Of a DNA stretch of 26,238 nucleotides, positions 2,276 to 8,814 are shown piece by piece. The translations under genes and the position numbers were made by a program. The notes beneath the pieces are model-generated. The model saw nothing but the letters and a program-made list of their open reading frames with translations. It had not been told where the DNA came from and ran no database searches. Origin of the DNA: a virus (taxonomy: Duplodnaviria > Heunggongvirae > Uroviricota > Caudoviricetes). The stretch lies in the IMG/VR virus record IMGVR_UViG_2728369593_000006; one strand, written 5' to 3'. The stretch's first letter is position 1, and every line of letters begins with the position of its first letter.

Positions 2276-3108
2276 ACAGTTTAACGGCAAATAACCGTTT
2301 GTCGCAACAGCTGGTGGTCAGCGTCGCTGAACACCTGTTGTTACGGCATGAATGCAGATTACCAAATCACCTGGCTGTAAGTAACCACAGAGAACTTTAC
2401 CTGACTGTGGGGGGCGAGTTGTGCAGGAACTTAACCGCTGGTTTCGTGACGGAAGAGGACTTTATGTTCATGTTATTCGTTGGGAGCCAGAAACACAGCG
2501 CGTTATCTATCTTCGCAAAGACTACCCGCATGAGTGCTTTAGTCCTTTGTGGAAATTCAGGCGTGATTTTGTTGAGTGTGAAGGACCACCAGCACATTGA
2601 TTCTGCCATTCCGGGACGTTACACTGTTCAGGCACCTTATAAAGCGGGTGCCGGGATTGGCGTCCTGGAATTGATCAAGGCGATATATGACGCGCCAGCG
2701 TCTTTTTTATCGTCCGCATTTGCTCACATCAAAGTTATGGTGGGCTGGGCGGGGGCATCGAAAGATGCGCCGGTTTCCTTGATCACCGGTTACGCCAACC
2801 CCGTTCAGTTCACCACCAGCGAAATTGGCGTTTCCGGTGGTGGAAGTATTTCACCGATCAAGGAGGCTGCCATCATGGCTACTGTCCCAGCCCTCACTCG
2901 TCTGAATGATGAAGACTTACATAAACTCAGTTATGTAACAACTGCACTACGTGCTCTGCGCAAGGTAACTCTTTCGGATCCGCAGGCGCATCAGGTTTTG
3001 GTAGAAACCCTTCTTAACTTGCAGGCTGAACGTATTCGTCTGGCGGATAAGGCTAATTTTCATATTCACCGTCTCCTGAATATCAGCGGAGGGCATCGTC
3101 ATGCTTAA
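2272..3108 (+). CDS. Hypothetical early-operon protein
   Basis: 278-aa ORF whose ATG overlaps the upstream stop (ATGA), indicating translational coupling; no family recognised. Confidence 0.4.
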   Translation: MNSLTANNRLSQQLVVSVAEHLLLRHECRLPNHLAVSNHRELYLTVGGELCRNLTAGFVTEEDFMFMLFVGSQKHSALSIFAKTTRMSALVLCGNSGVILLSVKDHQHIDSAIPGRYTVQAPYKAGAGIGVLELIKAIYDAPASFLSSAFAHIKVMVGWAGASKDAPVSLITGYANPVQFTTSEIGVSGGGSISPIKEAAIMATVPALTRLNDEDLHKLSYVTTALRALRKVTLSDPQAHQVLVETLLNLQAERIRLADKANFHIHRLLNISGGHRHA

Positions 3109-3337
3109 TCCGTTGATCCTCAATATTTGCCGTTTGCTTCAGCGTAAAAAAACATCAATTCCTACAGTTGGGCAGTGGTACACCACGCCTGCAGGGCATG
3201 TTCTACGTGTTAGCCTGGTTGACCGTGAATGTCAGAAGGTGATTTGTGAACCGCTGGGCCGTAATTACCGCGTCAGTATGCCGCTTATAACCTTTCGCTC
3301 CGGAAAAAACATGAAGCATCTCGGAGGTGCAGCATGA
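3101..3337 (+). CDS. Hypothetical small protein
   Basis: 78-aa ORF with start and stop overlapping its neighbours in the coupled operon. Confidence 0.35.
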   Translation: MLNPLILNICRLLQRKKTSIPTVGQWYTTPAGHVLRVSLVDRECQKVICEPLGRNYRVSMPLITFRSGKNMKHLGGAA

Positions 3338-4218
3338 GTATGGAGCTGATGGTTAAAGCGATGAAAATTCGAGTGGGTAATCCATTGCGAAAACTGGTTC
3401 TGATCAAGCTGGCTGATAATGCCAGCGATCAGGGTGAGTGCTGGCCCAGCTACCAGCATATTGCTGACCAGTGCGAGATTAGCAAACGTTCTGTGATGAA
3501 TCATATTGCGGCCCTTTGTGAGTCCGGGCTGGTAAAAAAAGTCACCCGGAAAGGTGAAAAAGGTAACTCAAGTAATATCTATCTCCTTCATCTGGATGGT
3601 GCAGGAGATTCACTAGGGGGTAGTGCAAATAATTCACTATCTGGTGCAGCAAATTCACCAGGTAGTGCAGGAGATTCACTAGGGGGTAGTGCAAATAATT
3701 CACTATCTGGTGCAGCAAATTCACCAGGTAGTGCAGGAGTTGCACTAGGGGGTAGTGCAGGAGATTCACCCAGAACCAGTCACTCTTTTGAACCAGTCAA
3801 AGAACCAGTCAATGAACCAATAGCTGTTGGTGCATCTGCTGATGAGTCTGTGCGAGTTCGTTCAAACCGACCGGAATACTCTCCGGAGTTTGAGCAGGCA
3901 TGGCTGGCATATCCCAAACGTGCTGGTGGCAATTCAAAATCTGCAGCCTTCAAAGCCTGGAAAGCCCGTTTGAATGAGGGGGTAAACCCCGAAACCATGC
4001 TGGAAGGTGTGAAACGCTATGCGGGCTGGGTATCTGCGATGGGTAACAGCGGCACACAATTTGTGAAACAGGCTGTCACGTTCTTTGGTCCGGATCGTCA
4101 TTTCGAAGAATCCTGGGAAGTTCCTGCGGTATCTGCAGCCAGACGTGAGGACCCGTACTTCAAAGCCAGTTACGACAACGTGGACTACAGCCAGATCCCG
4201 GCAGGATTCAGGGGGTGA
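3334..4218 (+). CDS. Replication initiator (O-like): N-terminal winged-helix origin-binding domain, repeat linker, DnaT-like C-terminal domain
   Basis: N-terminus typical of phage replisome-organiser wHTH proteins; C-terminus ends ...SQIPAGFRG, resembling the C-terminus of primosomal protein DnaT as I recall it; internal tandem DNA repeats (iterons). Confidence 0.65.
   Translation: MSMELMVKAMKIRVGNPLRKLVLIKLADNASDQGECWPSYQHIADQCEISKRSVMNHIAALCESGLVKKVTRKGEKGNSSNIYLLHLDGAGDSLGGSANNSLSGAANSPGSAGDSLGGSANNSLSGAANSPGSAGVALGGSAGDSPRTSHSFEPVKEPVNEPIAVGASADESVRVRSNRPEYSPEFEQAWLAYPKRAGGNSKSAAFKAWKARLNEGVNPETMLEGVKRYAGWVSAMGNSGTQFVKQAVTFFGPDRHFEESWEVPAVSAARREDPYFKASYDNVDYSQIPAGFRG
3598..3780. repeat. 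Intragenic iteron array (candidate origin of replication): about 8 copies of an 18-24 bp unit GTGCA(G/A)NA(A/G)ATTCAC(T/C)A arranged as a 66-bp higher-order repeat, followed by 3 copies of GAACCAGTCA (3782-3820)
   Basis: Read directly; the 66-bp unit GTAGTGCAGGAGATTCACTAGGGGGTAGTGCAAATAATTCACTATCTGGTGCAGCAAATTCACCAG occurs twice exactly, then a degenerate third copy; analogous to the lambda ori inside gene O. Confidence 0.6.
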
Positions 4219-4220
4219 TC

Positions 4221-4709
4221 ATGAGTCTTTTGAATGAAGTTCAGAAATTCATTGAAGCCCATCCGGGGTGTACTTCCGGAGACATTGCGGATGCTTTTGC
4301 AGGTTACTCACGGCAGCGCGTTCTGCAGTCAGCAAGCAAGTTACGTCAGAGTGGGCGTGTGGCTCACCGTTGTGAAGGGGATACACGCAGACATTTCCCG
4401 CGCCAGACAAAGATATCGCCGGAGGCGGAACGGCAACCAGTTCGTGAAACCAGACCTGTGCGCAATTTCTATGTCGGCACTAACGACCCGCGGGAGATTT
4501 TATGCCTGACCCGCCAGGCTGAAGAACTGGAGTCCAGGGGCTTATACCGTCGTGCTGCAACGGTGTGGATGGCGGCATTCCGTGAAAGCCACTCCCAGCC
4601 AGAACGAAACAATTTTCTGGCGCGTCGTGAGCAGTGTTTACGGAAAAGCAGCAAGCGCGCTGTATCGGGTGATGAGTGGTATCTGTCAGGGAATTACGTG
4701 GGGGCTTAA
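4221..4709 (+). CDS. Putative transcriptional regulator: N-terminal wHTH, C-terminal PerC/ANR-like domain
   Basis: C-terminal motif LESRGLYRRAATVW...RREQCL resembles the PerC family (GLWRRAA...RRNYCL) as recalled from memory; start at ATG 4221 (ORF track begins at GTG 4215). Confidence 0.4.
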   Translation: MSLLNEVQKFIEAHPGCTSGDIADAFAGYSRQRVLQSASKLRQSGRVAHRCEGDTRRHFPRQTKISPEAERQPVRETRPVRNFYVGTNDPREILCLTRQAEELESRGLYRRAATVWMAAFRESHSQPERNNFLARREQCLRKSSKRAVSGDEWYLSGNYVGA

Positions 4710-5362
4710 TGAGTAATAAATATTGCCAGGAGCTGGTGGAACTGCGGAACAAACCAGCCCATGAACTGAAGGAAGTGGGCGATCAGTGGCGCACGCCGGA
4801 CAACATTTTCTGGGGAATTAACACCCTGTTTGGTCCGTTTGTTCTGGATCTGTTCACTGACGGTGATAACGCCAAATGTGCTGCGTATTACACGGCGGAA
4901 GACAACGCGCTGGCGCATGACTGGTCAGAACGCCTTGCGGAGCTTAAAGGTGCTGCCTTTGGAAATCCCCCATACAGCCGCGCCAGTCAGCATGAGGGGC
5001 AATACATCACCGGCATGCGTTACATCATGAAGCATGCCAGTGCCATGCGTGATAAGGGCGGGCGCTATGTTTTCCTGATCAAAGCTGCCACCAGCGAAGT
5101 GTGGTGGCCGGAAGATGCAGATCATATTGCTTTTATTCGCGGGCGTATTGGTTTTGAACTGCCTGCCTGGTTTATCCCGAAGGATGAGAAGCAGGTGCCG
5201 ACAGGCGCTTTCTTCGCTGGTGCTATTGCTGTTTTCGACAAGACCTGGAAGGGACCGGCAATCAGCTACATCGGGCGCGATGAACTTGAGGCATGTGGTG
5301 AGGCGTTTCTGGCGCAGGTTCGCCAGCAGGCGGAAAAGCTGGTCAGGGAGATGGCGGCATGA
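4709..5362 (+). CDS. Phage Dam-type DNA N6-adenine methyltransferase
   Basis: NPPY catalytic motif (FGNPPYS); length and position typical of the lambdoid nin-region Dam methylase; ATG overlaps the upstream stop (TAATG). Confidence 0.75.
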   Translation: MSNKYCQELVELRNKPAHELKEVGDQWRTPDNIFWGINTLFGPFVLDLFTDGDNAKCAAYYTAEDNALAHDWSERLAELKGAAFGNPPYSRASQHEGQYITGMRYIMKHASAMRDKGGRYVFLIKAATSEVWWPEDADHIAFIRGRIGFELPAWFIPKDEKQVPTGAFFAGAIAVFDKTWKGPAISYIGRDELEACGEAFLAQVRQQAEKLVREMAA

Positions 5363-5685
5363 CGACGTTAACTCAATGCCAGCAGCAGGTGCTGGATATG
5401 CTGATTTCTTATCAGAAAGAACGTGGCTTCCCGCCAACCAATCAGGAGGTGGCAACCATGCTGGGATACCGTTCGGTGAATGCAGCGGTGGAGCATCTTC
5501 GCGCACTGGAGAAAAAAGGCGTCATCACGATAAAGCGTGGCGTGGCCCGGGGGATCACGCTTCATACCGCAGTGAAGGACGACGACAGCGAAGCGGTCGG
5601 TATCATCCGCGCACTGCTTGCCGGTGAGGAGAACGCCAGGTTGCGTGCAGCCCACTGGTTACATGAGAGGGGCTTGAAAGTATGA
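5359..5685 (+). CDS. LexA N-terminal DNA-binding-domain homologue without a peptidase domain
   Basis: 108 aa; LTQCQQQVLDMLISYQKERGFPPTNQEVATMLGYRSVNAAVEHLRALEKKGVI parallels E. coli LexA residues about 1-70 ([53 protein letters not shown]). Confidence 0.65.
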   Translation: MTTLTQCQQQVLDMLISYQKERGFPPTNQEVATMLGYRSVNAAVEHLRALEKKGVITIKRGVARGITLHTAVKDDDSEAVGIIRALLAGEENARLRAAHWLHERGLKV

Positions 5686-6072
5686 AGTTGATCCTTCCTT
5701 TCCCGCCCAGTGTGAACACGTACTGGCGACACCCCAACAAAGGGGCATTTGCTGGTAAGAGCCTGATAAGCGAGGCGGGGCGAAAATTTCAGAGCGCGGC
5801 GTGCGCAGCAATAGTTGAGCAGTTACGTCGTCTGCCGAAACCAACGTCGGCACCTGCTTCAGTGGAGATCGTGTTGTTTCCGCCGGATAACCGGATCCGT
5901 GATCTGGACAACTATAACAAGGCGCTGTTTGACGTCCCTGACCCCAGCGGGTGTGTGGGAAGACGACAGACAGGTGAAAAGAATGCTGGTGGAGTGGGGA
6001 CCGGTTATCCCGAAAGGGAAGGTCGAGATCACTATCAGTAAGTACGAGAAAACGGCGGGTGCAGCCGCCTGA
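5682..6072 (+). pseudogene. rusA: RusA Holliday-junction resolvase, interrupted by a +1 frameshift at about 5934-5940
   Basis: Frame A (5682..5936) ends ...DLDNYNKALFDV then reads nonsense; frame B continues LTPAGVWEDDRQVKRMLVEWGPVIPKGKVEITISKYE to the stop at 6072, matching the RusA C-terminus; junction is at a CCC run (GTCCCTG). Confidence 0.7.
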
Positions 6073-6091
6073 TTAAGAGGAGAAACGAAGT

Positions 6092-6903: not shown

Positions 6904-7900
6904 GTGACCGTGAGAGCACTACTGACCCCTGAAATTGCCCCGCGTATGGGGATCGTATTGTTCAGACCAGGTTCAGAGCTGATGCCCCTGTTTATGCAGG
7001 GGCGTGTCCTGCTGGAGCCTGAGCCGGAGCATTATTCATCTTTCGCCAGTGGTGCCGTTCCCGCGGCATCACAACCGCTGGCGGATGATCCTGTCGTTCG
7101 GGCCGTGTTCCGTAATGAGGCAGTGATTCGTCGTGCTGGTGGCGTGGAATGTCTTGAAAGCTGGTTACTTCGTAAAAAAGGCTGCCAGTGGCCTCATTCC
7201 GACTGGCACAGCGAGAACATGACCACAATGCGACACGCGCCGGGCGCAATCCGTCTGTGCTGGCACTGTGATAACCAGCTGCGCGATCAGTTCACGGAAC
7301 GGCTGGAATCAATGGCAACGGATAACTGTACCCGCTGGGTGTTGTCTGTTGTGCGTCGGGATCTCGGTTTTGATGACAGTCACGTTGTGACAATTGCCGG
7401 AACTGTGCTGGTGGCTGATTCGTAATGACCTGGCGGATGCCTTACCGGAAAGTGCAGCCCGTAAGGCACTGAGATTACCAAAGCCTGTTGTGCCGTCTGT
7501 CACCCGGGAAAGTGACCTTGTGCCTTCGGTTCCTGCCACCAGCATCATCCAGGATAAAGCGAAAAAGGTGCTGGCGCTGAAAGTGGATCCGGAGTCGCCG
7601 GAGTCTTTTATGTTACGCCCAAAACGTCGCCGCTGGGTTAATGAAAAGTACACGCGCTGGGTTAAGACACAGCCGTGTGCATGTTGTGGAAAGCCCGCTG
7701 ATGATCCCCACCACCTGATAGGTCACGGTCAGGGTGGAATGGGAACAAAAGCGCATGACCTTTTTGTGTTGCCTTTGTGCAGAAAGCATCACGACGAGCT
7801 GCATGCGGATACCGTGGCATTTGAAGAGAAGTATGGCTCCCAGCTGGAGCTGATATTTCGTTTTATCGATCGTGCGCTGGCAATTGGCGTGCTGGCCTGA
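6904..7900 (+). pseudogene. DUF968/YdfU-like protein with HNH-like C-terminal motif, possibly split by a +1 frameshift near 7418-7426 (alternatively two adjacent genes)
   Basis: ORFs 6904..7425 and 7394..7900 lie in different frames and overlap; combined length (about 340 aa) is what I recall for YdfU-type DUF968 proteins; C-terminal CxxC...HH...H motif. Confidence 0.4.
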
Positions 7901-8367: not shown

Positions 8368-8814
8368 TTAAGGTTTTAATTCATCAAGACGTTGTTGGAT
8401 AGTGTTTTTGCTTGCGTTGTCTGTTATAGCCATTTGTTGTACTTGCCCCATTGCCATTTGAGTTTCCATCCACATATCGGCCCACACTTTTGTATCGTTA
8501 TTAACTTGAGCGATAGTAAATTTGACTTTTGATACCGGGGTTGTTGAATAGGCATTGCCGATTAACATTTGTCCAAAAACAGCAGACCCGCCTTCCAGTT
8601 CTTTACCACATATAACACTGCTGTTATCCGCGTTGTAAATTATCAACCCTCTACTATTGCAGTAATTCACAAGGGCATCTTTGACTTTATCTTTTGTCGT
8701 ATTTTGATAAACCCCCTCAGGTTTTCCTGATTGAGTTTTCTTTATCAATGGTACGGAAGAAGTACAACCTGAAATGATAGTTGCGCTAAGTAATAATACA
8801 GTCATTTTATTCAT
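8368..8814 (-). CDS. Lipoprotein of unknown function (moron in the Q-lysis interval)
   Basis: 148 aa; N-terminal signal peptide with lipobox LLSATIISG-C; AT-rich coding sequence; opposite orientation to the flanking phage operons. Confidence 0.6.
   Translation of the reverse strand: MNKMTVLLLSATIISGCTSSVPLIKKTQSGKPEGVYQNTTKDKVKDALVNYCNSRGLIIYNADNSSVICGKELEGGSAVFGQMLIGNAYSTTPVSKVKFTIAQVNNDTKVWADMWMETQMAMGQVQQMAITDNASKNTIQQRLDELKP

Follow-up and report, generated by a model that had tools for sequence, protein, structure and literature searches.

The prophage gene yfdN encodes a two-domain PerC-family protein and directly follows the replication initiator gene

yfdN in the early operon of a lambdoid prophage

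The stretch of DNA analysed here (26,238 nucleotides; referred to as the window) is a lambdoid prophage, relatives of which with 97-98.5% identity are present in several E. coli chromosomes. On its + strand it carries an intact and uninterrupted open reading frame at positions 4221-4709, which starts at an ATG (4221) or at an upstream GTG (4215), ends with a TAA stop codon (4707-4709) and encodes a protein of 162 or 164 amino acids, respectively. The 489 bp of this reading frame are 100% identical at the DNA level to the gene that is annotated in PGAP/RefSeq as "yfdN: PerC family transcriptional regulator". A match to yfdN was found in 2668 of the 5426 complete E. coli genomes, and the gene is also present in mEp460, in Stx2c-converting phages and in other lambdoid phages (the best matches being about 98% identical). 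Thousands of entries in the protein database bear the name "PerC family transcriptional regulator", and the 90%-identity clusters that hold thousands of members are 92-99% identical to the YfdN protein of the window. PHROG 1324 ("transcriptional activator") matches the protein over its full length (E 2e-76); PHROG 23071 covers the N-terminal half, and PHROGs 2608 and 10396 cover the C-terminal half. We regard it as near certain that the reading frame is the known PerC-family gene yfdN of lambdoid prophages. YfdN of the cryptic prophage CPS-53/KpLE1 of E. coli K-12 is the product of the same gene, which has the same neighbours (rep, yfdN and dam), and the protein of the window shows no structural difference from it; Uhlich 2018 calls yfdN "the K12 unique PerC homologue" (PMC5931665). 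The finding is thus correct, and it is already known at annotation level.

PGAP places the start of yfdN at the GTG, which overlaps the stop codon of the upstream gene rep (TGA, 4216-4218). However, diverged YfdN homologues begin with the same MS[LI] residues as the product of the ATG at 4221, and the GTG is absent from alleles in which the upstream stop codon is TAA, from which we conclude that the ATG is the likelier start. A Shine-Dalgarno-like AGGGGG at 4210-4215 (+ strand) is formed by the last two sense codons of rep, Arg-Gly (AGG GGG), and the pattern GGGG-T[GA]A-N2-3-ATGAG was kept in the junctions examined. With this Shine-Dalgarno-like sequence inside the last rep codons and the ATG located 2 nt past the rep stop, translational coupling between rep and yfdN is probable.

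The sequence-only reading had placed the gene in the replication operon, and its position there could be confirmed: the yfdN start lies within a few nucleotides of the rep stop codon (with the GTG start the two overlap), and the stop codon of yfdN overlaps the ATG of dam (TAATG, 4707-4711). A consensus scan of positions 2702-6073 found no promoter-like site and no + strand terminator-like site, which is weak evidence, and a separate promoter of yfdN was set aside on this basis. The gene order in the window is cI, cro-like, cII, Ash, rep, yfdN, dam, LexA-DBD, rusA, KilA-N, DUF968 and Q, and annotated relatives keep the same order around yfdN. Judged by this arrangement, yfdN is a gene of the early-right operon (cro, cII, rep, yfdN, dam, lexA-DBD, rusA and so on to Q). 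Since this position is under the control of the prophage repressor, YfdN is expected upon prophage induction and not in the repressed lysogen, and the gene order argues against the earlier suggestion that the protein cross-regulates host genes in the lysogen. In CFT073, NO stress raised the expression of a yfdN copy 12.6-fold along with that of prophage genes (PMC5320621), which is consistent with yfdN being an early-operon gene.

Compared with a 98.5% identical prophage of E. coli strain Q5, the window contains single-base insertions of T or A at positions 1235, 1247, 5935, 6139, 7394, 14547 and 15253. Two of these (1235 and 1247) lie in the cI-like repressor gene, which is split into 713-1243 and 1240-1389; further genes split by insertions are those for RusA (5682-6041 and 5815-6072), DUF968 (6904-7425 and 7394-7900) and the large terminase, and the 5' end of KilA-N is altered. 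The insertions are not located in long homopolymers and leave rep, yfdN and dam unaffected; they represent either prophage decay or assembly errors. If the insertions in the repressor gene are real, they would derepress the operon, and only then would constitutive transcription of yfdN be possible.

The gene downstream of yfdN, dam (4709-5362, + strand), encodes a phage N6-adenine methyltransferase (Pfam Dam, E 1e-45; TIGR01712, 255.6 bits). It is followed at 5359-5685 by a gene for a 108-residue protein that consists of the LexA DNA-binding domain alone (PF01726, E 3e-19), without the S24 peptidase domain, and that keeps its position in many relatives; this protein may compete for SOS-box binding or mimic it.

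Domain architecture of YfdN

The structure of YfdN was predicted with AlphaFold2 on the basis of a 20-sequence alignment. An N-terminal winged helix, which had been proposed from the sequence as the fusion partner of the PerC part, was recovered in this model. The domain (residues 1-55; 4221-4385, + strand) is predicted to consist of three helices (residues 3-13, 19-25 and 31-44) and a hairpin, with pLDDT values of 79-86 over the helices. In line with the model, the domain gave weak matches to the MarR or HTH_24 profiles, as did the N-terminal domains of a few relatives, and Foldseek returned weak local matches to the winged helices of Lrp/AsnC, MarR and LexA.

The N-terminal domain also resembles the lambda protein Ren. 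Residues 1-52 of YfdN, beginning with Met1, align with residues 1-51 of lambda Ren, and the comparison with the Ren family by hhalign reached a probability of 90.5% (P 1.3e-6) and a score of 34.1, compared with scores of at most 13.4 for 20 column-shuffled controls; PHROG 142 ("Ren-like exclusion protein") matched weakly (E 0.009). From sequence comparison the domain is probably homologous to Ren, and YfdN as a whole is most aptly seen as a fusion of a Ren-like winged helix with a PerC domain, a description which our literature search did not return for this protein. Ren itself differs in being 96-100 residues long, in having a different C-terminal half and in the absence of a PerC domain.

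The winged helix is followed by a basic linker (residues 56-88; 4386-4484, + strand), which is predicted to be disordered (pLDDT below 50 for residues 50-82) and which varies in length and sequence across the family. YfdN as a whole is basic, with a net charge of +8.8 and a pI of 9.9.

The PerC motif that had been named for the C-terminal half proved to be genuine and to lie far outside what chance would produce. GLYRRAATVW...RREQCL is located at residues 107-140, the core motif A..LE..G[LF][YW]RRAA..W ... ER ... RR..C[L] is present, and the profile search that had been proposed as a check gave a match of Pfam PF06069 to residues 98-151 with an E-value of 8.6e-10 and 39.2 bits, which is well above the gathering score of 22.6 bits. 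All 23 diverged relatives that were scanned match Pfam PerC as well. The domain (residues 89-150; 4485-4670, + strand; motif A..LE..GLYRRAA..W...ER...RR..CL) is predicted to form three helices (90-105, 109-122 and 126-149; pLDDT 89-94). In an alignment with PchA, PchD, PchE and small PerC-only proteins, residues A100, L103, G107, R111, A112, R136 and C139 of YfdN are invariant. In the model, the domain looks like a TPR/MIT-type protein-binding module and not like a classical DNA-binding fold.

At its C-terminus YfdN carries a conserved tail, DEWYLSGNYVGA (4671-4706, + strand; family consensus W.LAG.%.G), in which L155, G157 and G161 are nearly invariant among the two-domain relatives. The tail is absent from PchA, PchD and PchE, and AlphaFold2 models it as a short hairpin with low confidence.

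In a search of 1.84 billion cluster representatives we found 104 relatives of YfdN, about 25 of which are full-length two-domain proteins with 26-47% identity. Their alignment is invariant at P15, A100, L103, R111, A112, R136 and C139, and, as judged from these sequences, the two-domain design persists down to about 26% identity. To this we add a comparison of 110 E. coli alleles that differ from the allele of the window at 11-36 of 486 positions, in which dN/dS was 0.145 for the N-terminal domain, 0.176 for the C-terminal domain and 1.17 for the linker. Both folded domains are therefore under purifying selection and functional, whereas the linker, with a ratio of about 1.2, is free to vary. 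Carriage on mobile elements, a trait of the PerC family, applies to yfdN with its location in the early region of a lambdoid prophage. However, YfdN does not share the small single-domain size of the family (about 89-104 residues), since it has 162 residues and contains the winged helix, the linker and the tail in addition. The YfdN type is a distinct and conserved two-domain PerC subfamily (PHROG 1324).

A possible Pch-like role

The LEE1/ler activators PchA, PchB and PchC of EHEC and PerC of EPEC have the PerC domain in common with YfdN and are likewise located on mobile elements. YfdN and PchA are 40% identical over 50 residues (E 1e-8) and share the invariant residues A, L, G, R, A, R and C. 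Pch and PerC differ from YfdN in that they are single-domain proteins of 89-104 residues that lack the winged helix and the WYLSGNYVG tail. The C-terminal domain of YfdN is also 40% identical to PchE (ECs_1588) and 33% identical to PchD (ECs_1388) of O157:H7 Sakai, with hhalign probabilities of 97.9% and 95.4%, respectively; both are single-domain proteins of 89-90 residues.

The genes also differ in their location. While yfdN is a gene of the early operon, pchA is a moron that is located in the late region, on the opposite strand, and is transcribed separately (Sakai Sp4, near lysis genes; L269, 23366-23680). In the PICI-like Sakai Sp7 (L002, 11104-12045), pchE follows directly after a primase gene, a small ORF and an SSB gene. 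Genes of the PerC family thus fill at least two different niches on mobile elements, after replication genes (pchE) and near lysis genes (pchA), and the notion that they are always found beside replication genes was rejected because of pchA.

We lean towards the view that YfdN acts early in lytic growth as a Pch-like modulator of H-NS-type complexes, guided to its targets by the winged helix and basic linker that it carries itself. By this account, YfdN would be made together with the early lytic genes once the prophage repressor is lifted, and its PerC domain would remodel silencing nucleoprotein complexes of the H-NS/StpA/Hha type, by analogy with Pch and PerC. The winged helix and the basic linker may direct YfdN to DNA, a capacity that is missing from the single-domain Pch proteins. 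The targets would be phage DNA or host loci, on which the effect would be either activation or repression.

The analogy draws on PchA, which relieves the silencing of LEE1 by H-NS/StpA/Hha and binds at many loci of the chromosome (Fukui 2016, PMC4764244). However, H-NS did not co-precipitate with PchA in the same study (PMC4764244), which counts against the mechanism suggested for YfdN. It also speaks against a Pch-like role that PchD and PchE are as close to YfdN as PchA is, yet do not activate LEE; PchE represses csgD and curli and promotes flagella. The TPR/MIT-like appearance of the PerC domain, which points to protein binding, likewise counts against this role. A further argument against it is that the tight linkage of yfdN to the replication initiator gene could point to a role in replication instead. 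Members of the PerC family have broad regulatory effects, and a PerC-like protein encoded on a PICI represses LEE1, for which the authors suggested an ANR-like behaviour (PMC11773190). As the examples of LEE1 and csgD illustrate, membership in the PerC family does not predict the direction of regulation. The homology of the N-terminal domain to Ren adds no mechanistic support.

Published data on yfdN itself are screen-level data; experiments on YfdN that address LEE1/ler or H-NS were not found in our literature search. Overexpression of yfdN from the ASKA collection alters the glycogen content of K-12 (PMC2853380). A 2.5-kb fragment of UTI89 that includes yfdN2 causes filamentation, an effect that is assigned to the fragment and not to a single gene (PMC6206680), and a UTI89 fragment spanning yfdN1 and four adjoining prophage genes was scored as urine-induced (PMC5404293). 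Uhlich 2018 used a reporter strain from which yfdN had been deleted, and the part of that report dealing with the strain describes no effect of the deletion (PMC5931665). If YfdN is expressed together with the lytic early genes, the induction of many E. coli prophages would release a Pch-like factor, and such a factor could affect loci that are silenced by H-NS, such as LEE, curli and flagella.

The initiator tail and alternative roles

The gene directly upstream of yfdN, rep (3334-4218, + strand), encodes a replication initiator (PHROG 270, E 4e-88) with an N-terminal domain matching Pfam HTH_36 and a C-terminal half matching PHROGs that bear the names DnaD-like helicase loader and primosomal protein. 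Tandem Repeats Finder detected an iteron array inside rep, at 3599-3769, which we presume to be the origin; it consists of 2.4 copies of a 66-bp unit (97% match) with a sub-repeat of about 21 bp in 7.7 copies. The Rep protein of the window is 22 residues longer than that of the strain 4/1-1 allele (294 versus 272 residues), and the extra residues are located in a repeated GGSANNSLSGAANSPGSAG segment encoded by the iteron array.

The last 24 residues of Rep (REDPYFKASYDNVDYSQIPAGFRG; 4144-4215, + strand) form a conserved tail that is co-inherited with yfdN. In 143 loci with YfdN-like genes, the upstream initiators are mosaics of at least four unrelated N-terminal and three middle domains, and nearly all of them end in such a 24-residue tail (REDPYFKASYDNVDYSQIPAGFRG, REDGIFKPSFKNTDYSAIPPGFRG, ..AYTIPEGFRG or ..DYSQVPEGFRS). 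A mosaic breakpoint lies just upstream of the tail (loci L005-L267), indicating that the tail and yfdN travel together. When IMG/VR was scanned with the tail pattern alone, 118 new loci were obtained, and a YfdN-like gene came next in 116 of these; of the other two, one is situated at the edge of a contig, and in the other (L214) the next gene encodes a D12 methylase. In relatives with 26-70% identity, the YfdN-like gene again directly follows the replication initiator gene, the stop codon of which usually overlaps its start codon. A scan of genome contigs for related loci yielded four loci only, and a scan of viral sequences with the relative P0169 yielded none. Taken together, the conservation and arrangement of these sequences suggest that the Rep tail and YfdN are functionally tied. 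The association is not absolute: in L214 the tail is followed by the D12 methylase gene, and in L017 a YfdN-like gene follows an initiator without the tail.

YfdN may thus be a second protein of the replication module, the PerC domain of which docks on the C-terminal peptide of the initiator or on a host replication factor, an alternative that we consider unlikely, though worth weighing. It would then help to assemble or unmask the origin complex, in the place that is held by P and Ren after O in lambda. Several observations agree with such a role: the gene stays directly behind the initiator gene down to about 26% identity, while the downstream slot varies; no P-, DnaC- or DnaB-like gene was seen in these phages; initiators with otherwise unrelated domains share the tail; and the tail is about 60% conserved between groups in which the YfdN proteins are only about 32% identical. 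The position of pchE behind a primase and an SSB gene fits as well. Short terminal peptides are typical ligands of TPR and MIT folds, and the TPR/MIT-like fold predicted for the PerC domain would be compatible with binding of such a peptide.

However, the 116 loci come for the most part from E. coli prophages that are close relatives of one another, and the linkage therefore largely reflects the inheritance of a single block of DNA. The last codons of the tail have a second use as the Shine-Dalgarno sequence for the gene that follows, and the conserved gene order of lambdoid phages, with its ren slot, explains the adjacency without an interaction; in Sakai prophage Sp8, ren is located after O and P, as yfdN is after rep. 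The two exceptions L214 and L017 also speak against a replication role, as do two relatives, one located immediately behind a genuine lambda-P gene (P0202) and one that is near no replication gene (P0180). The P0202 case also weakens the idea of YfdN as a substitute of lambda P. As evidence against a PerC-type regulator the sequence-only reading had named identity with a known replication accessory factor; YfdN matches none of those known, and a literature search for PerC together with CPS-53 or lambdoid replication gave nothing relevant.

The slot 3' of the YfdN-like gene holds Dam (PF05869), MT-A70 (PF05063), D12 (PF02086) or no methylase (including L009, L015, L017, L018, L262 and L266), which looks like a convergent filling of one slot by three unrelated N6-adenine methyltransferase families.

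The value of the present finding is limited, since yfdN is named and annotated, is present in about half of the complete E. coli genomes and is recognised in the literature as the K-12 PerC homologue. The new points are small: the Ren-like N-terminal domain, the conserved two-domain design and the linkage to the conserved initiator tail. Part of the residual value lies in YfdN being a very common prophage protein that has been studied at screen level only, and the near-obligate linkage to the initiator tail is a lead to what PerC domains do for the mobile element itself.

The sequence-only reading had also proposed an ANR affiliation. If YfdN acted like an ANR, it would be an anti-activator of the Aar type, a negative regulator that binds AraC-family activators and/or H-NS by protein contact and does not activate transcription. 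The ANR proteins (Aar, Rnr and Cnr) are small three-helix proteins of less than 10 kDa (PMC4983702) that are encoded along with AraC-family genes and exert their effect by binding to AggR and H-NS. Their similarity to the PerC domain is distant. The NCBIfam ANR model (NF033650) matches residues 96-142 with an E-value of 5e-5, and the repression of LEE1 by the PICI-encoded protein and of csgD by PchE would fit a negative regulator. However, the match scores 23.1 bits and stays below the curated cut-off of 32, whereas the PerC score lies much higher and above its threshold. With 162 residues in two domains, one of them a winged helix, YfdN is twice the size of an ANR, and no AraC-family gene is annotated in the near-identical (98.5%) prophage that spans the window. 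ANR membership was rejected because of the sub-cut-off score and the misfit in size and context, and we consider it quite unlikely that YfdN works in this way.

Very doubtful, in our estimation, is a broader reading according to which YfdN-type proteins are dedicated components of a widespread lambdoid replication module and not regulators of host virulence. The PerC domain would here bind the initiator peptide (...DYSQIPAGFRG) or clear H-NS-type proteins from the origin, and Pch and PerC would have come by their effects on LEE secondarily, through exaptation of an adaptor that serves mobile elements in replication or anti-silencing. It is improbable that YfdN is a functional Ren-type protein protecting from prophage exclusion such as that by lambda RexAB, with the PerC domain as an add-on: the N-terminal domain aligns with Ren from end to end and both genes occupy the slot directly after the replication genes, but what the two proteins share is no more than a generic winged helix of about 50 residues, YfdN has no counterpart of the conserved C-terminal half of Ren, and no PADLOC or other defence-related match was obtained.

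YfdN was also considered as part of a known defence system and set aside, as no PADLOC family matched at E ≤ 0.01. A 148-residue ORF on the - strand of the window (8368-8814) likewise gave no PADLOC match and is annotated as hypothetical in the near-identical prophage. This ORF, which resembles a moron, begins with a lipoprotein-like signal (MNKMTVLLLSATIISGC), has promoter-like sites at 8833-8804 and 8876-8849 and lies just past the end of the Q-like gene, in the opposite orientation.
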